From positions 1,962 to 65,961 of the forward strand of contig JACPKP010000007.1 in assembly GCA_016186955.1 (NCBI GenBank): a DNA stretch of 64,000 nucleotides. Direction: 5' to 3'. The notes under the pieces are model-generated. The model searched no databases and was not told the origin of the DNA. It was given only the letters and a program-made list of their open reading frames with translations. The position numbers and the translations under genes are program-made. Source of the stretch: Candidatus Daviesbacteria bacterium (GTDB lineage: Bacteria; Patescibacteriota; Microgenomatia; Daviesbacterales; UBA10151). Within the stretch, counting starts at the first letter, position 1. Every line of letters begins with the position of its first letter. Below, in pieces: positions 5,481 to 49,458 of the stretch.

Positions 5481-6902
<1,422 letters not shown>

Positions 6903-9170: not shown

Positions 9171-12100
9171 ATGTTTGAAAAAAACATTATCCAAAAAGGC
9201 CTGTCTATCCGGCAGGCAGGCATAGCCCATCTGATGCTGCTAATTGCTGTGGTAGGGCTGGTGGCATTCCTGCTCATCTCCAACACTTTTGATTTTAAGA
9301 ATAAGATTTTCAATGCCCTGTTCCCAAAACCTGCTTCAAAAGCAGCTGAAAATTTAGATACGACTAAAATTATTTCAAATGAGCTTTTAGTAAAATTAAA
9401 ACCTGAAATAGCAAATGTTTTAAAAGGTAAAGTGGAAACTGCAGCACTTACAGAAACTGGAATAGCCTCATTTGATGAATCTTTGAAGAAAGCAAAAGTT
9501 AAGAAAATTGAGTTTGTATCTAAAAAGTCTAAAGTTAATAAAGGTAAAAGAGTTCAAAACCCTAATTTCAGCAGTGACCATGTTGATAGATGGTTTAAAT
9601 TAACTCTAGCAAACCCTCAAGAAAAGTTGTCTGTTGATGGAATTATACTGGATTCAGATCCAAAGTTAAATAACAGTCAACTTAATGCTAGTGTTCAAAG
9701 TCCATCAACATCTCGAAGCAATAGATTGTTTAACCTGAAACCTAAACCAACAAGTGAGTCGAGTTTTCAGCTAAAGGATCGTTCTATTCCCGAGCCAACA
9801 TTAGAGGCTAATAAAAATCTTGGATATGGATTATTAGCTGATTCGATGAAAGAGTTAAAGAAAAATTCTCAGATTGAAGTGGTGGAACCGAATTACATCT
9901 ATCATAAGTTCGAAGTGACCACGAATGATTTTTATTTTAATTCACCATTAAATGAACTTTGGGATTTAAAAAGAATTAATATTTCAAAAGCTTGGGATTT
10001 AACAATGGGGAGTAAGTCAACAGTGGTAGCTGTAGTTGATTCGGGTATTGATTATACACATCCTGATCTTTTGGATAATATATGGATTAATCCAGGTGAA
10101 AGTGGTGGTAAAGAGAATAATGGCATAGACGATGATAGCAACGGTTTTATAGATGATTATAGGGGATATGATTTTGTTACAATTGATCCAAGAAAAGAAG
10201 ATGTTTTAGATACTACTGATAATGATCCTATGGATGAGTTAGGGCATGGTACTCATGTTGCTGGGATAATTGGGGCTTTAGGAAATAATGATCCTGATCA
10301 TTCAATAGACACCGGCAAGCGGATGGTAGGAGTAAGCAATATTAGTTTAATGGCGGTGAAAGGATTGAACGCTAATGGTGAAGGATTAATAAGTGATTTG
10401 GGCGCAGCTATAAGGTATGTAACGGATAATGGGGCTGATGTTATAAACATGAGTTGGGGGGGAATGGGGAAAAGCCAATTTTTGGATGATCAACTTCAGT
10501 ACAGCTACAACAGGGGCGTGGTTTTGATTGCAGCTGCAGGTAATAGTGCTATTAATGCAGCTTATTTTAGTCCCGCTAGTTCGTCATATGTTATTACTGT
10601 TGCGTCCTCTAATGACCAGGATTCTTATTCCTGTTTTTCCAACTTTGGTTTCAAAATAGACCTTTCTGCTCCAGGAGGCGATTCTTCAAGTTGTGGTGGG
10701 GGCGGAAAGAACATTCTTTCCACAATTTCTAAGACTCACAGCAGTTCATTTTCCATATATGGTTGTTGTTATGCAGTTGCAGCAGGTACATCTATGGCGA
10801 CACCCCATGTTGCTGGAACTGCAGCCTTGCTTTTGACGCTTCATCCTGACTGGACTCAGGAGATGGTCAGACAAGCTTTGAGAAAAGGTAGTGATGATAT
10901 CGGGCCTCCTGGTTTTGACCTTGATACAGGATATGGCAGGTTGGATGTATTCAAAACCTTAAGTTGGCAAAAACCGTTATCAGTTAAAATAACCTATCCT
11001 ACCGAAAGTACGCTTTTTTCAACAACTAATATTCAAATTTCAGGGATAGTCAGTGGTGAAAATTTAAGCAATTGGAAACTCGAATATGCTTCTTATTATG
11101 ATCAAAATAATTGGCAGCTTTTAAATAGCGCCACCGTACCTGTGAATTACGGGCTTTTAAAAGATTGGGATATAACATCTTTGCTTGATAAGCCTTATAT
11201 TTTGAAACTTACAGCAACAGATCAGTCAGGGATAATTTATGAAGATAGGGTTGCAGTGGTAATAAATCAATTGATTTTGGATGATCCACCGCTTGCATAC
11301 CCAGATAACCGGTTTAGGGATTTTGCAGTTTATAACATAGGGCAGAAAGTAGTTATCAAAGGCACTGCAGCTCAGGCTAACTTGAAAAATTATCAGGTTA
11401 AAATTTATAAAGCCAATACATACGCAGAGATTACAAACGTCAAGATAGCCTTAACAAATGACGGATTGCAAAAGGTAAGAAACGGCATTTTAGGAACATG
11501 GGATACGAGTGGTCTTGCTCAGGATATGTATATTGTTGAACTCAGGGCTAACTTATCCGACGGAAGTTACAGCGCATTAGGTGGGACAGTATTGTTGGAT
11601 AATTTTGTTCATTCAGGTTGGCCAAAAAAGATCTTTGATTATGAAGGTAGTAATTGGTATTTACCCTCGCCATATGGTCATTTAATCACTGAAGATATAG
11701 ACGGAGACGGAAAAAAAGATCTGCTGACCGCTTATGGCGACAAAGTGGTTATTTATAATGGTGATGGAGGGGTTTTATCCGGATGGCCACAAACAGTTGA
11801 TCCATTTAATAAATTTGAATCTATTATTAAAGGGCCTACGGTTGGAGATTTAGATAATGATGGTAAACCCGAAATAGTGGCAGCTGCAAATTCTGTATCC
11901 GTCGAGACGGGCACATTTTTATTAAATGATGCTTTAATCTTGATTTGGCGTTCTGATGGGACTCTTTTTCCTGGTTGGCCAAAAAGGATATCGGGGATTA
12001 AAAATCCTTTCATAGTATTGAGTGATGTCGATGACGATGGTCAACAGGATATAGTATTAGAAAGTAGTTCTGGTGTGAATGCGGATCCTGCAAGGATTAC

Positions 12101-23643: not shown

Positions 23644-23652
23644 ACCGCGTTA

Positions 23653-23719
23653 GGCACAAAAGGCGTCCCCTTTTGAGGCTAAATTAATTTATACCCCCTT
23701 GTTTTAACTGTAACTATTT
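23653..23719. repeat. Y-repeat copy 1: 67-nt exact duplicate of the 3' end of the regulator gene (24481..25785)
   Basis: Identical to 24457-24523. Its reverse complement encodes EIVTVKTRGYKLI*. Confidence 0.7.
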
Positions 23720-23723
23720 TTAA

Positions 23724-23749
23724 AATCCCACCCCCTGGGTGGTCCTGAG
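23724..23749. repeat. X-repeat copy 1 (variant, CCCACC-CCCT-GGGTGG hairpin)
   Basis: AAAATCCCACCCCCTGGGTGGTCCTGAG. Confidence 0.5.
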
Positions 23750-24449
23750 TATAGGTTTCCTTTCATCGAAAAGTTGCGGGCACAACAATTATAAGATATC
23801 ATTCTTGTTTATGGAGAGAATCAGTGTGCAGGAAGCAGGGTTAGAAGGTTTACCCAGGATTAGGGGACATCATCTAAATAAACTGAAAGAGCTCTATGTT
23901 TTTATGAATACTAAAAGGGAATCTTTATCCGAATCAGGATATCAAGGTTCTTTGTCAGGAGAAATGGAAGCTTTAATCAAATTTTTTATTCAGGAACATA
24001 GCAGCGATTTGTTGACATTTGTAGATCCTGCAACCCGTACTTTTGGTTTATCTCAAGAGTGGATGATGAGTTATATAAACGATACAATTGGAGGTATTGA
24101 AGCCGAGAAAGTTAAAATATACAATCAAAAAACATATGAAGCGATTGTAAAATATATTTCATATCCGGCAAGCCAACAAGTTCTATTGACAGTTACCCCG
24201 GATTTTATTTGCAGATTATGTTTAGTGGGAACACATTGTTTAAAAAGCTCAAAATTGATGCCACTTGATTATAGAGAAATCAGAGAATTTTCAAAGTTCC
24301 AAATAAACAGGAGAAGGGATATGCAAATTTATACGGAGGAATTTAAATTTAGCGATCGCCTGAAGCCATTAATCACTAAAGTAGTGTTAACCACCTTTGG
24401 AGATATTAGGTTTTACTTATCTTTTGGTGGAATCCCACCCCCGGGTTAG
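23739..24449 (+). CDS. hypothetical protein on a repeat-flanked cassette
   Basis: ORF bracketed by X/Y repeats. The true start may be MERISVQ at 23811. No recognisable domain. Confidence 0.4.
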   Translation: MVLSIGFLSSKSCGHNNYKISFLFMERISVQEAGLEGLPRIRGHHLNKLKELYVFMNTKRESLSESGYQGSLSGEMEALIKFFIQEHSSDLLTFVDPATRTFGLSQEWMMSYINDTIGGIEAEKVKIYNQKTYEAIVKYISYPASQQVLLTVTPDFICRLCLVGTHCLKSSKLMPLDYREIREFSKFQINRRRDMQIYTEEFKFSDRLKPLITKVVLTTFGDIRFYLSFGGIPPPG

Positions 24450-24523
24450 TCCTAGGCACAAAAGGCGTCCCCTTTTGAGGCTAAATTAATTTATACCCCC
24501 TTGTTTTAACTGTAACTATTTCA
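24431..24523. repeat. X-repeat copy 2 plus Y-repeat copy 2 (native 3' end of the regulator gene)
   Basis: AATCCCACCCCCGGGTTAGTCCTAGG followed by the 67-nt Y sequence. Confidence 0.7.
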
Positions 24524-26379: not shown

Positions 26380-26628
26380 ATGGATCAGTTAAAAAAACAA
26401 AAGCTTGAAATGTGGCAAAAAAAACTTGAAGGGCTTCAAAAAGAGTTCAAGGAGATTATGGTGCGCAAAGGGGAAGCTGCAGCTGACGGTGACCTTTCAG
26501 AAAATGCAGCATACAAACAGGCTGTGGAGGAGGCTGATATTTGCCTGGTCAGGATCAGTGAAATTAAAAAAATTATAGCTAATTTGGAAGGACCCGCCTC
26601 CGCCAAGGCTCCGGCGGGCAAGGGATAA
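26380..26628 (+). CDS. stand-alone GreA/GreB N-terminal coiled-coil domain protein
   Basis: GDLSENAAYKQA signature of the Gre-factor N-terminal domain, with two Asp/Glu near the coiled-coil tip. No FKBP-like C-domain; 82 aa. Confidence 0.55.
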   Translation: MDQLKKQKLEMWQKKLEGLQKEFKEIMVRKGEAAADGDLSENAAYKQAVEEADICLVRISEIKKIIANLEGPASAKAPAGKG

Positions 26629-34883: not shown

Positions 34884-35189
34884 ATGGTAGAGACAGAATA
34901 TCGCGACCCTATAGATACAGAATATAACAGGTATTTAGACAGTCCTTCTAAGAAGCTTTGGGATGATGTTGATATAGAGGTAAAAAAACTTTTATATTTT
35001 GCCGAAATGACCTCAGGTATGACATCCTTGGAAAGAACGGTTTATCTGTTGAGGTTTGAAGTTAGAAATATTATCAATAAAAGATACTCACGAAGAGAAG
35101 TGGGAGAGTTAATAGAAAAATCCCCCAGGACTGTACAAAGATTGGAAAAGAGTGCCATGGCCAAAATTGCATCCGGATTTGGCGCCTGA
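34884..35189 (+). CDS. stand-alone sigma-70 region-4-like HTH protein
   Basis: LERTVYLLRFEV...YSRREVGELIEKSPRTVQRLEKSAMAKI closely fits the sigma-70 region 4 pattern. Confidence 0.5.
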   Translation: MVETEYRDPIDTEYNRYLDSPSKKLWDDVDIEVKKLLYFAEMTSGMTSLERTVYLLRFEVRNIINKRYSRREVGELIEKSPRTVQRLEKSAMAKIASGFGA

Positions 35190-36324: not shown

Positions 36325-37180
36325 GTCAAAAGTCAAAAGCCCGTCTGCCGGACGGGCAGGTCAAAAGTCAAAAGTATCAAGAAAAGATTCTGTCGCCCCG
36401 AGTAACTCGGGGATCCAGAATGACAAAAAACCAAAAAAGACTAAAAAAGTTGCAGGAGTAAATAAGATTGCCACGTCCTCCGAAAAGGTTAAAAAACCTA
36501 TAGTTAAAACTAAGACAACATCAAATTTGTCAATTCCTGTTTATTCTCTGGCAGGCAGCAAGACCGCAGCAAGTTTGGCATTGCCTAAAGAAATTTTTGG
36601 CGCCAAAGTAAACAAAGCCTTGCTTGCCCAGGCGATGAGGGTTTACCTTAATAATCAGAAAAGCCATTGGTCAAATACCAAAACCCGTGGTGAAGTAAAA
36701 GGGTCAACCAGGAAAATTTTTAAACAAAAAGGCACCGGCAGGGCAAGACATGGGGCAATCAGGGCCCCAATTTTTGTGGGCGGGGGGATTGCTTTGGGGC
36801 CAAAAAACCGGAAGGTAGTTTTGGATCTGCCCGCAAAAATGAAAAATGCGGCGCTGGTTTCAGCCTTAGCACAAAAAGCAGATGAGAAGCAGGTTTTAGG
36901 GATCAGCGGCTTGGATAAAGCAAGCGGAAAAACCAAAGAGATGATAGGCTTAGTCACAAGAGTCCAGAGTCAAGAGTCCAGTAAAAAAAGTATTTTGATT
37001 GTGGTGGGGGAGAAGATAGAAAATGCTGCTAGGGCTGTGAGAAATATTACAGGGGTAGATTTACTGCAATTTGACCAGATTAATGCTTATGAAGTAATTA
37101 AACACCAAAGCCTGGTTTTAACAAAGGAAGCTGTTGAAAAATTGCAGGGAAGACTATTGGGTAAAAAGGAGGCTAAATAA
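36311..37180 (+). CDS. rplD: 50S ribosomal protein L4 with ~80-aa Lys-rich N-terminal extension
   Basis: L4 core from about IPVYSLAG. The N-terminal extension contains the palindromic element (36324-36374) in-frame. Confidence 0.9.
   Translation: MAVIKSKVKSPSAGRAGQKSKVSRKDSVAPSNSGIQNDKKPKKTKKVAGVNKIATSSEKVKKPIVKTKTTSNLSIPVYSLAGSKTAASLALPKEIFGAKVNKALLAQAMRVYLNNQKSHWSNTKTRGEVKGSTRKIFKQKGTGRARHGAIRAPIFVGGGIALGPKNRKVVLDLPAKMKNAALVSALAQKADEKQVLGISGLDKASGKTKEMIGLVTRVQSQESSKKSILIVVGEKIENAARAVRNITGVDLLQFDQINAYEVIKHQSLVLTKEAVEKLQGRLLGKKEAK
36324..36374. repeat. GTCAAAA(x2)-GCCCGTCTGCCGGACGGGCAGG-GTCAAAA(x2) palindromic element, in-frame in rplD
   Basis: Encodes KSKVKSPSAGRAGQKSKV; family members at 37599, 38199, 47643, 44466 and 49419. 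Confidence 0.75.
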
Positions 37181-37182
37181 AA

Positions 37183-37692
37183 ATGACAGCTGTTATATTA
37201 AAACCGTTGGTTACGGAAAAATCAATGTCGCTTGTCAAATCAGGAATGTTTACATTCCTGGTGGATAAAAACGCCACCAAAAGTCAGATTGGGAAAGCTG
37301 TTTCCGGGAGATTTGCAGTGGATGTTTTAAGTGTCAGTACAGTGAATATGAAGGGTAAAACCAAACTGCAAAAGAGCAGAAAAGGGTATTTTCAGAAACC
37401 ATCGTTTAAAAAAGCAATAGTCCAGCTTAAAAAAGGGCAAAAAATTGCTTTGTTTGAATCAGCAGAGAAAGAAGAAGTAGAAGTGAGGACAGCAGAAGGT
37501 GAAGTAGTTGGCAAAACCACAGAAAAAAAGAGTTTATTGGGGAGGACAAAGATAAAGATCAGCAAGCTGTCTCCTGTGGAGATTGAACAAAATACAGCAG
37601 TCAAAAGCCCGCCTGCCGGACGGGCAGGTCAAAAGGCAAAAGTTAAAAGTACAAGTAAAAAATTAAAAGTAAACAAGAAAGGAGCTAAGTAA
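37183..37692 (+). CDS. rplW: 50S ribosomal protein L23 with C-terminal extension
   Basis: L23 core; the C-terminal 70 aa are Lys-rich and contain the palindromic element. Confidence 0.85.
   Translation: MTAVILKPLVTEKSMSLVKSGMFTFLVDKNATKSQIGKAVSGRFAVDVLSVSTVNMKGKTKLQKSRKGYFQKPSFKKAIVQLKKGQKIALFESAEKEEVEVRTAEGEVVGKTTEKKSLLGRTKIKISKLSPVEIEQNTAVKSPPAGRAGQKAKVKSTSKKLKVNKKGAK
37599..37645. repeat. palindromic element copy in the rplW 3' extension (GCCCGCCTGCCGGACGGGCAGG flanked by GTCAAAAG)
   Basis: Encodes VKSPPAGRAGQKAKVKS. Confidence 0.7.
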
Positions 37693-37695
37693 AAA

Positions 37696-38556
37696 ATGGC
37701 GCTAATTAGTTACAAAGAAAACACACCAACCAGAAGGTTTATGACCAAGCTCGAAAAACCAAAGAAAAACGGTAAACATCATAAATCCCTGGTCAGTATA
37801 CTGCCGAAACAAAGCGGCCGGTCGCATGGCAAAGTTACAGTCCGCCACCAGGGCGGAAGGCACAAGAGATATTACAGGTTAGTTGATTTCAAAAGGAATA
37901 AATTTGGAGTAGAAGCAGTAGTGGAAGCTTTTGAGTATGACCCAAACAGGAATGTCAATATTGCCCTGGTTAAATATGCCGATGGTGAGAGAAGATACAT
38001 CTTAGCGCCTTCAGGTTTAAAGCCGGGGGATAGAGTGATATCAGGAGAAAGGGTTGAAGTAAAGGTTGGCAATGCCATGAAACTTAAAAATATGCCTGTA
38101 GGTACAATAGTCCATAATGTGGAGTTGACACCGGGCAGAGGAGGCCAGTTTGGGCGTAGTGCAGGTACAGGGTTGACTATCCAGGCGAAAGATAGCGGCC
38201 TGCCTGCCGACCTGCCTGACGGCAGTCAGGGCAGGCAGGGGTTTGCGCACTTGAAAATGCCCTCAGGAGAGATTAGAATGGTTCCCCTGGAGGCTATGGG
38301 GACTGTTGGAAGCTTGGGTAACGAAGAATGGAAGAATGTTACTTTTGGTAAGGCTGGAAGAAAAAGGCATATGGGGATCAGGCCGACTGTCAGGGGGACA
38401 GCCCAGGATCCCCACTCACATCCGCATGGTGGAGGAGAGGGCAGGTCAGGAATCGGCAGAAAAAGCCCCATGACGGTATACGGTAAAAAGGCAGTGGGAA
38501 ATACCAGAAAAAAGAATAAATGGACAAGCAAGTATATTTTGAAAAGGAGGAAATAG
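37696..38556 (+). CDS. rplB: 50S ribosomal protein L2 with ~14-aa internal insertion
   Basis: L2 core (HGGGEGR...). The insertion LPADLPDGSQGRQG is encoded by a ~41-nt palindrome. Confidence 0.9.
   Translation: MALISYKENTPTRRFMTKLEKPKKNGKHHKSLVSILPKQSGRSHGKVTVRHQGGRHKRYYRLVDFKRNKFGVEAVVEAFEYDPNRNVNIALVKYADGERRYILAPSGLKPGDRVISGERVEVKVGNAMKLKNMPVGTIVHNVELTPGRGGQFGRSAGTGLTIQAKDSGLPADLPDGSQGRQGFAHLKMPSGEIRMVPLEAMGTVGSLGNEEWKNVTFGKAGRKRHMGIRPTVRGTAQDPHSHPHGGGEGRSGIGRKSPMTVYGKKAVGNTRKKNKWTSKYILKRRK
38199..38239. repeat. GC-rich palindrome CCTGCCTGCCGACCTGCCTGACGGCAGTCAGGGCAGGCAGG in-frame inside rplB
   Basis: Outer arms CCTGCCTGC/GCAGGCAGG; shares the CTGCCGAC core with the intergenic copies. Confidence 0.65.
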
Positions 38557-38941: not shown

Positions 38942-39418
38942 ATGGAGTATACAACAATACAAAAAAATATTACTACTTCGCCCAGGAAACTGAGGTTGGT
39001 GGCTGATATGGTGAGAAAAATGAGCCCAGAGCAGGCTGTAGAAATTTTGCAGTTTACCAATAAAGCGGCTGCTCAACCTTTGATCAAAGCCATCAAAACT
39101 GTTTTGGCAAACAGCAAAAAAGCTGATGTGGTTTTTAAAACCATTGAGATCAACGAAGGGCCAAAATTAAAAAGATACAGGGTGGGTACAGCCGGTAGAG
39201 GACGGGGCAGGCCGTACAGGAGAAGATGGAGCCATATAAAAATCGTTTTGATAGACGATTTAAATGTCAAAAGTCAAATGTCAAAAGTCAAAAGTACAGT
39301 TCAAAATGCAAAAGTAGAAGATAAGAAGGCAGCGTTAAAAGAAAAAGGAAGGGAGGGTAAAAAGAGTGTGCGGACTCCCGAAGTAGATCCTTCGACTCGC
39401 TACGCTCGCTCAGGATGA
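38942..39418 (+). CDS. rplV: 50S ribosomal protein L22 with C-terminal extension
   Basis: L22 core; the extension contains GTCAAAA/GTCAAAT 7-mer repeats (39266-39294). Confidence 0.9.
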   Translation: MEYTTIQKNITTSPRKLRLVADMVRKMSPEQAVEILQFTNKAAAQPLIKAIKTVLANSKKADVVFKTIEINEGPKLKRYRVGTAGRGRGRPYRRRWSHIKIVLIDDLNVKSQMSKVKSTVQNAKVEDKKAALKEKGREGKKSVRTPEVDPSTRYARSG

Positions 39419-41624: not shown

Positions 41625-41731
41625 TCGGACTGAAGCGAGAAACAATTACACTAATCCCTAATTGTTTCGAGCAAAGGAGATCGCTTGCCACAATTGTGTA
41701 ATCAATTGTGGACAAGGGAAAGGAAAACAAT
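41621..41731. repeat. intergenic element E copy 1 (GGTAATCGGACTGA...CCACAATTG-N6-CAATTGTGG...GGAAAGGAAAACAAT)
   Basis: Starts in the rplN stop codon and ends at the rplX ATG. Paralogous to 43397-43482. Contains a perfect 9-bp inverted repeat at 41689-41712. Confidence 0.65.
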
Positions 41732-42040: not shown

Positions 42041-42589
42041 ATGAAGACTTTAAAAGAAAAATATTTGGAGGAGGTGCAACCGAAAATGATGGAAGAGTTC
42101 AGTATTAAAAATGTTTTTGCAGCGCCTAAATTAAAAAAGATAGTTATCAATATGGGTCTGGCTGACGCAAAAGAGGATGCCGGTATTTTAGAAAAATCAG
42201 TGGTTAATGTTGCAGCTATTTCAGGCCAGAAGCCGGTTGTGACAAAGGCTAAAAAATCCATCGCAGCTTTTAAACTTACGAAAGGCGCTTCAATAGGGTT
42301 GATGGTAACTTTAAGGGGTGATAAGATGTATGCTTTTTTCAATAAACTTGTAAATATAGTATTGCCAAAAGTGAGGGATTTTAGGGGAGTTGCACAAACC
42401 GGCTTTGACAGCAAGGGAAATTATAATTTAGGTTTTAAGGAACTACTCATATTCCCTGAAATAAACTATAAAAATGTTGATAAACCAAGGGGGTTGCAGG
42501 TTACTATTAATACAACAGCAGAAAACAGGGAGCAGGGGAAAATGTTGCTAGAGCTGATGGGGATGCCTTTTAAGAAAGGGGACAGATAA
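42041..42589 (+). CDS. rplE: 50S ribosomal protein L5
   Basis: Typical L5. Confidence 0.9.
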   Translation: MKTLKEKYLEEVQPKMMEEFSIKNVFAAPKLKKIVINMGLADAKEDAGILEKSVVNVAAISGQKPVVTKAKKSIAAFKLTKGASIGLMVTLRGDKMYAFFNKLVNIVLPKVRDFRGVAQTGFDSKGNYNLGFKELLIFPEINYKNVDKPRGLQVTINTTAENREQGKMLLELMGMPFKKGDR

Positions 42590-42690
42590 AATTTTCAATT
42601 TAAAATTTACAATTTTCAATCAAATCTTAATTTTAAATTAAAACATTGGAAATTCATTGAAAATTAAAAACTGAAAATTAAAAATTAATT
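42588..42690. repeat. AT-rich intergenic repeat R copy 1 (AAATTTTCAATTTAAAATTTACAATTTTCAAT...AAAATTAAAAATTAATTT-ATG)
   Basis: Paralogs at 42887, 44381 and 49333. Confidence 0.7.
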
Positions 42691-42870
42691 TATGGCTAAG
42701 GTTAGTAATATAGTCAAGAAAAAAGTTAAATATGAAGTCCAAAAAGTGAACCGCTGTTTACGGTGTGGCAGGTCACGTGGTTTTATCAGACGCTTTGGTG
42801 TATGCAGAATTTGTTTTAGGGAACTTGTTTACCGCGGTTATTTACCGGGAGTAAAAAAATCATCATGGTA
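42691..42870 (+). CDS. rpsZ: 30S ribosomal protein S14 type Z (zinc-binding, 59 aa)
   Basis: [59 protein letters not shown] with a CxxC...CxxC motif. Below the 60-aa ORF-track cutoff; called by eye. Confidence 0.8.
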
Positions 42871-42886: not shown

Positions 42887-43004
42887 AGAAATTTTCAATT
42901 TAAAATTTACAATTTTCAATCAATGATTTAATGTTTAAATTTTGAAAATTAATCAAATGAAAATTCATTAAAAATTGAAAAATAAAAATTAAAAATTAAT
43001 TATT
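42887..43004. repeat. AT-rich intergenic repeat R copy 2
   Basis: Same head (GAAATTTTCAATTTAAAATTTACAATTTTCAATCAATGATTTAAT) and tail (AAAATTAAAAATTAATTATT-ATG) as copy 1. Confidence 0.7.
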
Positions 43005-43400
43005 ATGGATACAGTAGCCGATGCATTAACCAGAATAAAGAATGGATATATGGCCCGTAGGACCGAGGCGGTTTTGACATACTCAAAACTGGTTTTAGCA
43101 GTGCTCAAAGTTTTAGAAAAAGAGGGTTATATTGAAAATTTTAAAGAAAAAAAAGATGAGAAAAATAAAAATATTATTCAGATTTTAGTGGGGTTAAAGT
43201 ATGACGGCAAGAAGCCGGTTTTGACAGATCTTAAAAAGATTTCGAAACCCGGTTTGAGGGTATATAAAAGCAGCAAGAAGTTGCCCAGGGTTTTGAATGG
43301 TTTAGGTGTTGCAATAATTTCAACCCCAAAAGGGGTTATGACAGACAGACAAGCCAGAAAAGTTGGGCTCGGAGGAGAAATATTGGCGTATGTCTGGTAA
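43005..43400 (+). CDS. rpsH: 30S ribosomal protein S8
   Basis: S8 N-terminus DTVADALTRIKNG. Confidence 0.9.
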   Translation: MDTVADALTRIKNGYMARRTEAVLTYSKLVLAVLKVLEKEGYIENFKEKKDEKNKNIIQILVGLKYDGKKPVLTDLKKISKPGLRVYKSSKKLPRVLNGLGVAIISTPKGVMTDRQARKVGLGGEILAYVW

Positions 43401-43482
43401 TCGGACTGAGCGTAGCGAAGGAGATCGCTTGCCACAATTGTGTAACCAATTGTGGACAAGGGTAAAGAAAGGATAAAAATTT
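43397..43482. repeat. intergenic element E copy 2 (with CCACAATTG-N6-CAATTGTGG at 43432-43455)
   Basis: Starts in the rpsH stop codon and ends at the rplF ATG. Confidence 0.65.
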
Positions 43483-44380: not shown

Positions 44381-44507
44381 CAAATTTTCAAGTCACAATT
44401 TACAATTTTCAATAAATGATTTAATTTTAAATTTTAAACATTGAAAATTCATTGTAAATTGAAAACCTGTCTGCCGACAGGCAAGACTAAAAATTAAAAA
44501 TTAATTT
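44381..44507. repeat. AT-rich intergenic repeat R copy 3, carrying embedded GC hairpin CCTGTCTGCCGACAGG (44466-44481)
   Basis: Head CAAATTTTCAAGTCACAATTTACAATTTTCAAT, tail AAAATTAAAAATTAATTT-ATG (rpsE). Confidence 0.7.
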
Positions 44508-45020
44508 ATGGATCCAAGAAATAGGTTTAACAATCAAAGAAGGGGTTATAACAGGCCACCGCAAGAGCCCTCTGAATTTTTTGAAAAAGTAGTCCAGGTC
44601 AATAGGGTATCAAAAAAGACAAAGGGAGGAGATAAACGTTCGTTGTCTGTTTTGGTGGTCGTTGGGGATAAGAAAGGCAGGGTGGGTGTGGGCTTGGGCA
44701 AAGCGGCGGATGTCCAGTCAGCTGTCAGGAAAGCTACAGCCTATGCTAAAAAACATCTTTTCGCAGTCCCTTTAAAAAACAATCGGACAATTCCCCACAG
44801 CATATTTGTAAAACTGGGCGCTGCAAAGGTAATGATGAAGCCTGCATCGGAGGGGATAGGGGTGATTGCAGGGGGGGCAGTCAGGGTTGTGATGGAGGCG
44901 GCAGGCATCAAAGATATAATTTCAAAAGTATTGGGCACCAGTAACCAGGCATCTAATGTCTATGCAAGTTTGGAGGCGTTGAAGCAGCTTAAGCCTTTTG
45001 TAAAGAGGGGGGATAAATGA
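44508..45020 (+). CDS. rpsE: 30S ribosomal protein S5
   Basis: S5 dsRBD and C-domain. Followed directly by rplO with no L30 gene between them. Confidence 0.9.
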   Translation: MDPRNRFNNQRRGYNRPPQEPSEFFEKVVQVNRVSKKTKGGDKRSLSVLVVVGDKKGRVGVGLGKAADVQSAVRKATAYAKKHLFAVPLKNNRTIPHSIFVKLGAAKVMMKPASEGIGVIAGGAVRVVMEAAGIKDIISKVLGTSNQASNVYASLEALKQLKPFVKRGDK

Positions 45021-45472
45021 AATTACATAAATTACCAAAACTGAAAGCCAGGCCTAAAAAACGCCTCGGGAGGGGTTTGGGTTCAGGTAAAGGAAAAACC
45101 GGCGGGAGAGGACAAAAAGGCCAGAAAGCACGCGGAAAGATTCCTGCAGCCAATGTCGGCGGAGGCCTGATTTTATATAAAAAACTGCCCTTCCGGAGGG
45201 GGTTAAGCCGGAAAGGCGGTAACCCGCCCCGTTTGCCAAAACCTATATTAATTAGTCTTTCCAGCTTAAATCAGGTTAAAGCAAAAACACATATTAATAT
45301 AGATACTTTGATTGAAAATGGTTTGATTAAGGCAAAAGATGCTAAAATTAGGGGAGTTAAAATATTAGCCAACGGTAAATTACAGATACCGCTTGTAGTT
45401 GAGCTGCCTGTAAGCAAAAAAGCCAAGGAGTTAATTGAAAAGGCCGGAGGTAATATTGGAATTATAGGTTAA
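45017..45472 (+). CDS. rplO: 50S ribosomal protein L15
   Basis: Gly/Arg-rich L15 N-terminal region. Confidence 0.85.
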   Translation: MKLHKLPKLKARPKKRLGRGLGSGKGKTGGRGQKGQKARGKIPAANVGGGLILYKKLPFRRGLSRKGGNPPRLPKPILISLSSLNQVKAKTHINIDTLIENGLIKAKDAKIRGVKILANGKLQIPLVVELPVSKKAKELIEKAGGNIGIIG

Positions 45473-46765: not shown

Positions 46766-47313
46766 AAATTTTAATCACCGGTCCGCAGGGTTCTGGTAAA
46801 ACAACCCACGCCAAAATTGTGGCAGAAAAATTTAATTTATGTTTTATCAAAACCGGGGACTTGGTGAGGAATAAAGCTTTAGAAAATAGTGATGAAGGAA
46901 GAAAGTTGAAAGAGGCTTTGGATAAAGGTGAGTTGGCAGATGATAGGATTATTGCAAATTTAGTAGAAAATGCGTTGGTACAACAAAATTGCAAAGATAA
47001 TTTTGTAATGGATGGTTATCCCAGGCGGCTGCCCCAGCTTCAGGTTTTTGACCCTGGTTTTGATAAGGTTTTTTATTTGGACTTATCTGATGAGATGGCA
47101 GTAGAGAGGATGCTGAAAAGAAGCAGGGAGGATGATACTCCTCAATTAATTCAACAAAGGCTAATGTTGTACCATCGGGAAACTGAAAAAGCGCTAAAGT
47201 ACTATCAAACTATGGGAATTTTAATAAAAATTAATGCAGCAAGAAGTATTGGAGAAGTTGCTGGAGATATAGTGGACCATTTAAAAAGACATGGCAATAA
47301 ATACAAGGACTAA
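46762..47313 (+). CDS. adk: adenylate kinase (short form, no zinc lid)
   Basis: [15 protein letters not shown]. Confidence 0.85.
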
Positions 47314-48091
47314 GGGAGAACTGGCGCTAATGAGAAAGAGTGGGGTTATTACTGCCAGGGCGTTGGGAGAAGTCTTGAAGAATGTCCGTGAAGGTATTAG
47401 CCTGATAGAATTGGAAAAAGTTGCGGAAAACCAGGTTGTCAAGTTGGGAGGAGAACCTTCATTTAAAACCGTCCCTGGTTACAGATGGACTTCCTGCTTG
47501 ACTATCAACAATGAGGTTGTACACGGAATCCCAAGGGATATTAAGTTGAAAAATGGTGATATCTTAAGTGTTGATTTAGGCGCAGTTTTTAAAGGCTGGC
47601 ATACGGATGCTGCATGGAGTGTGGTGGTGGGAAGTCAAAAGTCAAAAGCCCGTTTGCCGAACGGGCAGGTCAAAAGTCAAAATGATGAAAAAGAGAAATT
47701 TTTAGCAGTGGGGGAAGAGGCTCTATGGAAGGGGATTGGGCAGGCAGTGGATGGTAATAGAATAGGTGATATCTCCGGGGTTATACAGGAAGTTGTGGAG
47801 AGCGCAGGTTATTCAGTTGTGCGGGCGCTGGTAGGGCATGGGGTGGGCAGGGAGCTGCATGAAGACCCCGAAGTGCCGGGATATGGTAAAAAAAGTACAG
47901 GGCTCAAACTTATTGCAGGCATGACGCTTGCGGTAGAGGTGATTTACACCAGCGGGAAACCTGATGTAGTTTTGGATCCTGATGGTTGGACTATCACTAC
48001 TGCAGATGGAAGCCTGGGTGGACTTTTTGAGATGAGTGTGGTGGTAGGTGTAAAACAAGCTGAAGCGCTGACGGATTGGAGACAAAAGTGA
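47291..48091 (+). CDS. map: methionine aminopeptidase type I with ~25-aa internal insertion
   Basis: Pita-bread fold motifs. The true start may be the internal Met at 47324. The insertion is encoded by the palindromic element (47643-47690). Confidence 0.85.
   Translation: MAINTRTKGELALMRKSGVITARALGEVLKNVREGISLIELEKVAENQVVKLGGEPSFKTVPGYRWTSCLTINNEVVHGIPRDIKLKNGDILSVDLGAVFKGWHTDAAWSVVVGSQKSKARLPNGQVKSQNDEKEKFLAVGEEALWKGIGQAVDGNRIGDISGVIQEVVESAGYSVVRALVGHGVGRELHEDPEVPGYGKKSTGLKLIAGMTLAVEVIYTSGKPDVVLDPDGWTITTADGSLGGLFEMSVVVGVKQAEALTDWRQK
47643..47690. repeat. palindromic element copy in-frame in map (GTCAAAAGTCAAAAG-CCCGTTTGCCGAACGGGCAGG-TCAAAAGTCAAAA)
   Basis: Stem bases differ from the rplD copy in a compensatory manner (GCCCGTT/AACGGGC versus GCCCGTC/GACGGGC). 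Confidence 0.75.
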
Positions 48092-49332: not shown

Positions 49333-49458
49333 TAAATTTTCAAGTCACAATTTACAATTTTCAATCAATGATTTAATTCTTAAATTTTAAACATTGAAAA
49401 TTCATTAAAAATTGAAAACCTGTCTGCCGACAGGCAAGACTGAAAATTAAAAATTATT
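49333..49458. repeat. AT-rich intergenic repeat R copy 4, carrying GC hairpin CCTGTCTGCCGACAGG (49419-49434)
   Basis: Near-identical to copy 3; tail AAAATTAAAAATTATT-ATG (rpsD). Confidence 0.7.

Follow-up and report, generated by a model that had tools for sequence, protein, structure and literature searches.

A hairpin in a Daviesbacteria methionine aminopeptidase gene is probably one copy of a 21-nt mobile DNA element

Does a hairpin whose two arms change in step, inside an otherwise conserved enzyme gene, mark a structure under selection, or does it record the history of the DNA that forms it? The question is raised by map, the gene for a type I methionine aminopeptidase (MetAP; 266 aa; 47291-48091, + strand), in a 64,000-nt stretch of a Candidatus Daviesbacteria genome (contig JACPKP010000007.1; the whole stretch is called the window below). 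A first-pass annotation, made from the letters alone, had noted that the palindrome in map (GCCCGTT-TGCCG-AACGGGC) and its counterpart in rplD (GCCCGTC-TGCCG-GACGGGC) differ by a C-to-T change on one arm that is matched by G-to-A on the other, and had taken this as a sign of selection on folded DNA or RNA. Both sequences are confirmed; the pair that closes the loop is C-G in the rplD copy and T-A in the map copy. That account did not include a third copy, in rplW, whose 19-mer (GCCCGCC-TGCCG-GACGGGC) is mismatched (C.A) at stem pair six. The analysis presented here makes it probable that the hairpin in map represents one copy of a mobile DNA element that is very small and non-coding, and the matched stem changes most likely reflect the spread of that element rather than a signal useful to the host.

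Comparison of filled and empty sites defines the inserted unit as exactly 21 nt, with the consensus CCCGCCTGCCGGACGGGCAGG, and so bears out the earlier description of the palindrome as an inserted element. Two phage tail-sheath paralogues (L071 and L072, ~72% identical) provide four filled/empty pairs, each differing by exactly 21 nt (CCCGCCTGCCGGACGGGCAGG) and none with a duplication. At the lpxH locus of Chitinophagaceae, filled DNA reads TTAAAAG[21 nt]AAAAAAA and empty DNA TTAAAAGAAAAAAA, with the carrier proteins measuring 267 aa against 260 aa in empty orthologues that are 93% identical. The zinc-knuckle loop of PheS reads G-K-G-C when empty and G-K-ARLPDGQ-G-C when filled; among 120 close homologues, 86 are empty and 27 have seven additional residues, most of the non-empty ones showing ARLPDGQ or a decayed form of it, and the carriers are bacteria of the candidate phyla radiation (CPR), including Levybacteria. 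Within the window, the 21 nt found at 44466 and 49419 are missing from the paralogous leaders at 42652 and 42963. A target-site duplication is absent at every filled/empty pair; this also excludes the idea that a 7-nt target duplication gave rise to the heptamer arrays described below.

The element is polymorphic between strains as well. Same-species Logan contigs were retrieved through an identical RpsM protein (exact-protein look-ups with full-length map, rpsS and rplP gave no match). One of them, L001, is identical to the window at the map site; in the other, L002, the flanks are 99% identical and a different, shorter series of heptamers stands in place of the map element and its GTCAAAA array. 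The same contig lacks both the AT-rich leader and the hairpin between rpsK and rpsD, where a shorter, different spacer is found instead. Once inserted, copies decay: orthologous copies in lpxH have four substitutions each, mostly from GC to AT and with no consistent compensation, and those in pheS span all stages from intact to barely recognisable.

The 21-mer is a GC-rich quasi-palindrome about a central G, in which seven of the ten pairs are Watson-Crick, one is G.T and two are C.A. Its make-up of GCC/GGC-like blocks allows two further, shifted registers of pairing that overlap the full-length one, namely the stem first noted, (G)CCCGYC/GRCGGG(C), and the alternative CCTGCC-GGACG-GGCAGG. RNA folding places the map and rplD copies in the former register (-12.4 and -14.7 kcal/mol, respectively) and the consensus, which is also the rplW copy, in the latter (CCUGCC-GGACG-GGCAGG; -13.5 kcal/mol); the hairpins of the copies have stabilities between -12 and -15 kcal/mol and z values of about -2 to -3. 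When Rfam models were run over the window the sole match was a tRNA, none falling on the hairpin copies, and no T-run of the kind that marks an intrinsic terminator follows the coding copies. The type I-F CRISPR repeat hairpin was considered too, its stem CUGCC...GGCAG being the same, but this is a resemblance only, with no array and no spacers.

Several properties suit such a unit to life inside genes. Since 21 nt make seven codons and none of the six frames contains a stop codon, an insertion adds seven residues without breaking the frame, and five of the six frames are in fact used. Purines occupy position -1 in 34 of 35 copies, and pyrimidines position +1 in 27 of 35. Copies are also found nested at or beside the central G of other copies, in L058, in L068 (a triple), in L064 (a high-GC phage) and in rplB of the window.

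Altogether the window holds nine copies or relatives in 64 kb. The map copy, CCCGTTTGCCGAACGGGCAGG (47649-47669, + strand), whose boundaries were taken from the filled/empty pairs, differs from the family consensus by three substitutions and is read ARLPNGQ. The rplD copy, CCCGTCTGCCGGACGGGCAGG (36340-36360, + strand), lies in an N-terminal extension and is read in a different frame, (S)PSAGRAG; the rplW copy (37608-37628, + strand), in a C-terminal tail, equals the consensus and is read (S)PPAGRAG. These three type-A copies form a 65-nt repeat family of 80-89% identity. Their 19-mer palindromes lie at 47648-47666 (map), 36339-36357 (rplD) and 37607-37625 (rplW), and a search for the 19-mer at up to three mismatches found 0 matches in 100 dinucleotide shuffles, so that chance does not explain the hairpin copies.

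A sister subfamily of the form CCTGNCTGCCGN'CAGGCAGG includes the intergenic and rplB copies of the window. The latter are a nested pair of 42 nt (38199-38240, assigned to neither strand) that makes a 14-aa insertion in uL2 relative to solved ribosomes; the inner element (38211-38230) is the antisense of CCTGACTGCCGTCAGGCAGG and is centred in the outer CCTGCCTGCCGA...GCAGGCAGGG. One type-B element, CCTGTCTGCCGACAGGCAAGA (44466-44486, + strand), occupies an AT-rich heptamer-repeat leader before rpsE, and a second (49419-49439, + strand) the leader before rpsD that is missing from L002. The intergenic hairpins of the first-pass annotation are thus present (44466-44481 and 49419-49434), but they fold as CCTGTC-TGCC-GACAGG, with a 6-bp stem and a 4-nt loop, instead of around the five-base loop TGCCG. 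Two further members are more distant: a decayed antisense copy (9200-9220, - strand; CCTGTCTATCCGGCAGGCAGG on the + strand), read LSIRQAG near the start of a 1613-aa open reading frame (ORF), and a 31-nt relative with the same termini (CCCGCCT...GGGCAAGG; 26593-26623, + strand) at the 3' end of a GreA-like ORF, whose membership of the family is tentative.

In the source genome the element sits in period-7 tandem arrays and in phase with them (21 = 3 x 7). The map site (47634-47682) consists of GTCAAAAGTCAAAAG, CCCGTTTGCCGAACGGGCAGG and TCAAAAGTCAAAA, the first and last being the upstream (47634-47648, + strand) and downstream (47670-47682, + strand) halves of a (GTCAAAA)n array, and the rplD copy breaks the same array at the same phase. 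Deletion of the 21-mer from either gene leaves an uninterrupted (GTCAAAA)4 array, and the rplW junction without it is a continuous run of GTCAAAA-like heptamers. The L040 element lies inside a (GTAAAAA)n array, and in the MetAP gene of another Microgenomates metagenome-assembled genome (MAG), L070, a diverged antisense relative with the same termini occupies an (AAATCCG)n array in the same protein loop. No association with heptamer arrays was seen for the phage, lpxH and pheS copies.

Period-7 arrays are frequent in the window at large, accounting, with periods of 7, 14 or 21, for ~20 of 49 Tandem Repeats Finder rows. They are located in AT-rich spacers and in lysine-rich tails or loops of ribosomal proteins (for example 5819-5851, 5970-6002, 36959-36981, 37638-37677, 39262-39316, 42587-42688, 42889-42999, 44383-44504 and 49335-49413) and recall the heptanucleotide repeats of cyanobacteria (short tandemly repeated repetitive sequences, STRR). 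A ~120-nt AT-rich repeat built of heptamers lies 5' of rpsN/Z, rpsH, rpsE and rpsD (42589-42700, 42889-43011, 44382-44516 and 49334-49456), and the tRNA-guanine transglycosylase gene (5496-6902) has a ~60-aa N-terminal insert with (AAAAGTC)n and (AAGAGTC)n arrays.

At the protein level, the MetAP insertion falls at residues ~113-129, between a strand (103-112, ...SVVVG) and a helix (130-150, FLAVGEEAL). It had been put at about 25 aa; in fact it amounts to 14 aa relative to solved MetAPs and 17 aa relative to the shortest close homologues, with seven residues (ARLPNGQ) contributed by the element and the remainder by the heptamer array. The suggestion that the encoded segment falls in a surface loop agrees with an AlphaFold model built from 44 homologues (mean predicted local distance difference test, pLDDT, 89.9; predicted template modelling score, pTM, 0.88), in which residues ~113-129 are predicted as coil of low confidence (pLDDT 58-73). 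The 120 closest MetAPs have between 0 and 28 additional residues in this loop; of those with a name, the nearest are from Candidatus Daviesbacteria (~61-64% identity). Several unrelated low-complexity or repeat-derived inserts occupy this loop, and ARLPNGQ occurs among these 120 only in the species of the window. Other peptides recur in the same loop of related CPR bacteria, such as DPSTS(S/P)QDDF and IASEARQS...SPEAPRDDK (homologues P0007, P0009, P0010, P0024, P0070, P0084, P0088, P0090, P0099, P0102 and P0109), and one PheS has ...ILRQAQDDK... in its zinc-knuckle loop; such peptides resemble the translated products of other small repeat families.

Covariation was assessed on 27 distinct type-A variants from 85 copies with distinct contexts. 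In the 7-bp stem first noted, 74% of cells are paired, and pair 6-14 is unpaired in 20 of the 27 variants. The covariation score of this stem (0.094, against 0.072 +/- 0.011 in shuffles) is reached by 16 of 500 shuffles, and part of the signal stems from the two window copies behind the original observation; type-A covariation is marginal in view of the false-positive range stated for the tool on related sequences. The alternative 6-bp register is 94% paired because it hardly varies, and neither it nor the full-length palindrome has a covariation signal. Eight type-A copies have A in place of G13, and in seven of these the T at position 7 that would compensate is missing. Nor does the TGCCG loop, which had been described as invariant, stand out: it differs in the intergenic copies, and across the family the loop positions are no more conserved than the stem.

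The sister subfamily, scanned with CCTGNCTGCCGNCAGGCAGG, gives a clearer picture at one pair. At N/N', 28 distinct low-GC copies have T/A (18), C/G (6) or A/T (4) and no mismatch, a result that rests on only two or three evolutionary events; all five mismatches are in high-GC contigs. Every amplified subfamily is therefore palindromic at that pair. A second wildcard scan (CCNNTCTGCCGANNGGCAGG), in which two further stem pairs were freed, returned canonical bases only and added no covariation. The earlier step from covariation to a selected structure thus stands in part: palindromy is kept between subfamilies (28 of 28), as would suit the suggested recognition site for the machinery that moves the element, but the signal is marginal within type A, whose consensus itself carries a mismatch. 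Changes in a palindrome can come about without selection through hairpin-templated correction, or equally through selection on the copying of the element; template switching at quasi-palindromes is an established mutational mechanism. We infer that the stem differences are no sign of selection for an RNA structure that serves the host.

The same 21-mer recurs far beyond this genome. A metagenome scan with the pattern AAAAGCCCNNNTGCCGNNNGGGCAGG returned 50 loci, including ~40 low-GC contigs that carry AAAAGCCCGCCTGCCGGACGGGCAGG, identical to the rplW version, in ~30 unrelated gene contexts. Among the unrelated genes with the same 21-mer are lpxH, pheS, pheT, tsaD, helicases and phage tail and head genes; named hosts are Levybacteria, Daviesbacteria-like bacteria and Chitinophagaceae, and the element is present in independent assemblies from JGI, NCBI, ENA and Logan. 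The element family spans CPR bacteria, soil Bacteroidota and phages, two bacterial phyla at the least being represented. In a viral-contig scan, several myovirus-like contigs of IMG genome 2820306284 showed approximately one copy per kb, in both orientations, within genes for the tail sheath, the tape measure, the terminase and the head. By our own count these phage copies number 35, of which 22 are sense and 13 antisense to the host ORF; 14 of the sense copies read xRLPDGQ, eight xPPAGRAG and none PACRTGR, which suggests that copies are translated and filtered by the effect of the peptide.

In one of the phage contigs, L068 (8471-11373), the tail-sheath gene appears to be broken into two ORFs, one of 759 aa with the N-terminal part of the sheath and extra domains and one of 182 aa with the sheath's C-terminal domain, and several element copies lie in and around the two. 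The only doublet seen that resembles a REPIN (a paired form of the repetitive extragenic palindromic, REP, sequences) consists of two inverted copies 71 nt apart with shared flanks (L022, 2531-2623). A scan of genome contigs for AAAAG-N7-TGCCG-N7-AGGTCAAAAG gave two matches, neither of them related (one a tandem repeat of 24 nt in Nostoc, the other coding sequence from Desulfobacteraceae), and GenBank phages and PLSDB plasmids gave chance-level matches apart from one exact 22-mer. The latter is in plasmid pSM30-1 of Pleomorphomonas sp. SM30 (AP017627.1, 98968-98989; L076, 1501-1522), in the high-GC intergenic spacer that separates deoR from ureE, and may reflect either chance or a family that reaches into Alphaproteobacteria.

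How might such a unit have produced matched stem changes? The three type-A copies of the window would form a descent series from rplW (the consensus) through rplD, in which a C-to-T change happens to pair with the opposing A, to map, with two more transitions. Because map shares the derived T of rplD, the repaired stems of the two are not independent, and the 'compensation' in map amounts to one event in one lineage. The stem differences would then be changes inherited among copies of a palindrome, and could have been kept since only palindromic copies propagate, or made by hairpin-templated correction of quasi-palindromes. The element would be non-autonomous, with a mobilising activity acting in trans on the folded single strand; by analogy with REP and its RAYT transposase and with IS200/IS605, the enzyme might be an HUH or tyrosine-type nuclease, though this identification is doubtful. 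The mobiliser may prefer exposed or hairpin DNA, a preference that would explain insertion both at the centres of other copies and in slippage-prone arrays. In the source genome the element may target heptamer arrays or spread through them, copies would persist where a surface loop or tail tolerates seven stop-free codons, and phages are plausible vehicles between phyla. A wider reading is offered tentatively, as a possibility that falls short of an even chance: a superfamily of 20-21-nt 'nano-transposons' (CCYGNCTGCCG...GGCAGG) may be carried between phyla by phages, mobilised in trans through a folded single strand and inserted without duplication into hairpin tips or heptamer arrays, its length and six open frames having been shaped by selection on the element to survive in essential genes.

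Several observations weigh against a mobile element. No transposase, HUH or reverse-transcriptase domain was found in the 20 non-ribosomal ORFs of the window, and the pattern of the metagenome scan fixed AAAAG and the outer stem, which biases its counts of frame and orientation. Seven of the nine window copies lie in a 13-kb ribosomal-protein cluster (36.3-49.5 kb), where the three type-A and two type-B copies are all on the sense strand; for this a role at the level of the host is a further possible explanation, as is transcription-exposed or array-rich DNA. The pheS element is 90-100% identical between lineages in which the flanking coding DNA is only 62-72% identical, and this means either repeated insertion at the same nucleotide, which could account for the conservation if the site is a preferred one, or constraint on the sequence, which would mean some function. 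The clustering of the window copies and the conservation in pheS, together with the stable hairpins and the one stem pair that covaries between subfamilies, are what speaks for a host-selected signal, be it for RNase processing, protein binding or a translational pause in ribosomal-protein mRNA, from which the covariation would follow. Such a signal is nevertheless improbable, and the post-transcriptional role suggested earlier finds no support in the comparison of copies: the map and rpsK-rpsD copies are missing from a strain with 99% identical flanks, orthologous copies decay uncompensated, the same 21-mer occurs in unrelated genes and in both orientations in phages, sibling window copies fold in different registers, type-A covariation is marginal and no Rfam family matched.

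A further difficulty is that the type-A copies of the window have 14-15 nt of identical array on each side, so that recombination between arrays is possible in place of transposition. In that case gene conversion, or illegitimate recombination of (GTCAAAA)n arrays with one another, would have carried a 35-50-nt patch of heptamers, hairpin and heptamers among rplW, rplD and map, as might be read from the three copies breaking the same heptamer at the same phase (AAAAG^TCAAAA) with 8-15 nt of identical flank on each side, from the element-free occurrence of the same array at 5838-5851 and 39280-39293, and from substitutions that form a nested series. We consider this unlikely for the source genome. 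It cannot account for the family at large, since the phage, lpxH and pheS insertions have unrelated flanks and exact 21-nt boundaries; the L040 and L070 elements lie in arrays of different heptamers, and 14 nt of homology is short for recombination. Little probability likewise attaches to an ordinary REP or REPIN mobilised by RAYT. REPs are 20-40-bp imperfect palindromes without target duplication that are thought to be handled as single-stranded hairpins and are occasionally intragenic (PMC3116915, PMC3733652), in some species at least (PMC3733652), and the short, imperfect, dispersed 21-mer and its inverted pair in L022 resemble them in these respects. REPs are, however, recognised by an unpaired GTAG/CGTC at one end, a 5-13-bp stem and a short tail, whereas the consensus RCCCGCCTGCCGGACGGGCAGG has no terminal GTAG/CGTC (CGTC occurs only internally, antisense) and a stem and loop geometry unlike described families. 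They are also predominantly extragenic and often in inverted doublets, whereas the 21-mer copies are mostly single and intragenic; the REP families in PMC3733652 range from species-specific to shared by several species, unlike a sequence found across phyla and phages, and no cognate RAYT gene was found among the 20 window ORFs scanned. Least credible by far is selection of the ARLPDGQ peptide itself, or an assembly or sequencing artefact. The frame K-ARLPDGQ-G does predominate in the metagenome sample, but the AAAAG of the scan pattern favours sense-strand lysine codons, the nucleotides are identical and the codons GC-rich in genomes of 37-45% GC, the same DNA is read in five of six frames and is also intergenic, copies decay gradually, and independent JGI, NCBI, ENA and Logan assemblies agree. 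A mobile element remains the preferred explanation of the map hairpin.

The ribosomal-protein region of the window contains other features of note. A 57-nt repeat (93% identical; 41670-41726 and 43414-43470), 5' of rplX and rplF, includes the palindrome CCACAATTGTG-N-CAATTGTGG, which gives the operon another repeated hairpin, distinct from the 21-mer. A 101-aa ORF without a Pfam match (34884-35189) lies between rpsJ and rplC, an unusual place for an extra gene, and rpsE is followed directly by rplO (44508-45472) without rpmD (L30) between them, which fits reports for CPR bacteria. Elsewhere, 69-nt direct repeats of 100% identity (23651-23719 and 24453-24521) flank a 236-aa ORF (23739-24449) without a Pfam match and may, with it, make up a small cassette, duplicated or mobile.

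The smallest class of mobile DNA to be accepted is founded on very few cases, the REPs and the small dispersed repeats (SDR) of cyanobacteria. Here, exact boundaries, the absence of duplication, self-nesting and filled and empty alleles make the question of movement testable in public Levybacteria and Chitinophagaceae MAGs and in phage contigs. For the hosts, hypervariable loops in essential, conserved proteins of CPR bacteria with reduced genomes would be built in part from selfish DNA, which matters for the reading of CPR-specific protein insertions and of phylogenies from ribosomal-protein alignments; if the nano-transposon reading is true, it would provide a recurrent source of new surface loops in uL2, uL4, uL23, MetAP and PheS. 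For annotation, the case cautions that compensatory-looking changes in a DNA palindrome are not evidence of a functional RNA. As far as could be found, the 21-nt family is undescribed: a literature search returned nothing containing the 22-mer or the peptide ARLPDGQ, and one on palindromic in-frame elements in Patescibacteria nothing relevant.

Among known systems, MITEs (miniature transposable elements with inverted repeats) derived from DDE transposons have terminal inverted repeats and a target-site duplication and usually measure 50-500 bp, whereas the 21-mer is far shorter and makes no duplication. The GC clusters of yeast mitochondria and the mitochondrial byp elements are short, GC-rich hairpin inserts in AT-rich genomes that can be intragenic; unlike the present family they are organellar, and byps are skipped by the ribosome. 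Nothing suggests bypassing of the 21-mer, because its length is a multiple of three and all frames are open. The Rickettsia palindromic elements (RPE) are palindromic inserts that lie in frame in protein genes, including housekeeping genes, where they are tolerated in surface loops and add a stretch of peptide. RPE-1, reportedly described by Ogata et al. in 2000, is said to measure ~100-150 bp and to be confined to Rickettsia. The 21-mer is likewise in frame in map, rplD, rplW, rplB, pheS and lpxH, but it is five to seven times shorter and its range takes in several phyla as well as phages. A discussion of RPE-4 and RPE-6 is given in PMC3733652.

Of the classes described so far, the cyanobacterial SDRs come closest, although the 21-mer is probably a different sequence from SDR1-8. 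Those of Nostoc, attributed to Elhai et al. (2008), reportedly measure 21-27 nt and are linked to heptamer repeats. The hosts differ, being Patescibacteria, Chitinophagaceae and phages here and cyanobacteria there, and the present 21-mer is common to several phyla, overwhelmingly in-frame and intragenic, and nests at its own centre. In other respects the likeness is close. Precise insertion is cited for SDR5 into HIP1 in PMC4390886 and PMC3116915, and Nostoc heptanucleotide repeats differ by insertions or deletions of non-heptamer elements (PMC3488679); the 21-mer is likewise precisely present or absent at otherwise matching sites (L002, phage sheath, lpxH and pheS), and its window, L040 and L070 copies share the heptamer-array setting. 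Both are dispersed, non-coding sequences of the 21-nt size class with predicted hairpin character.

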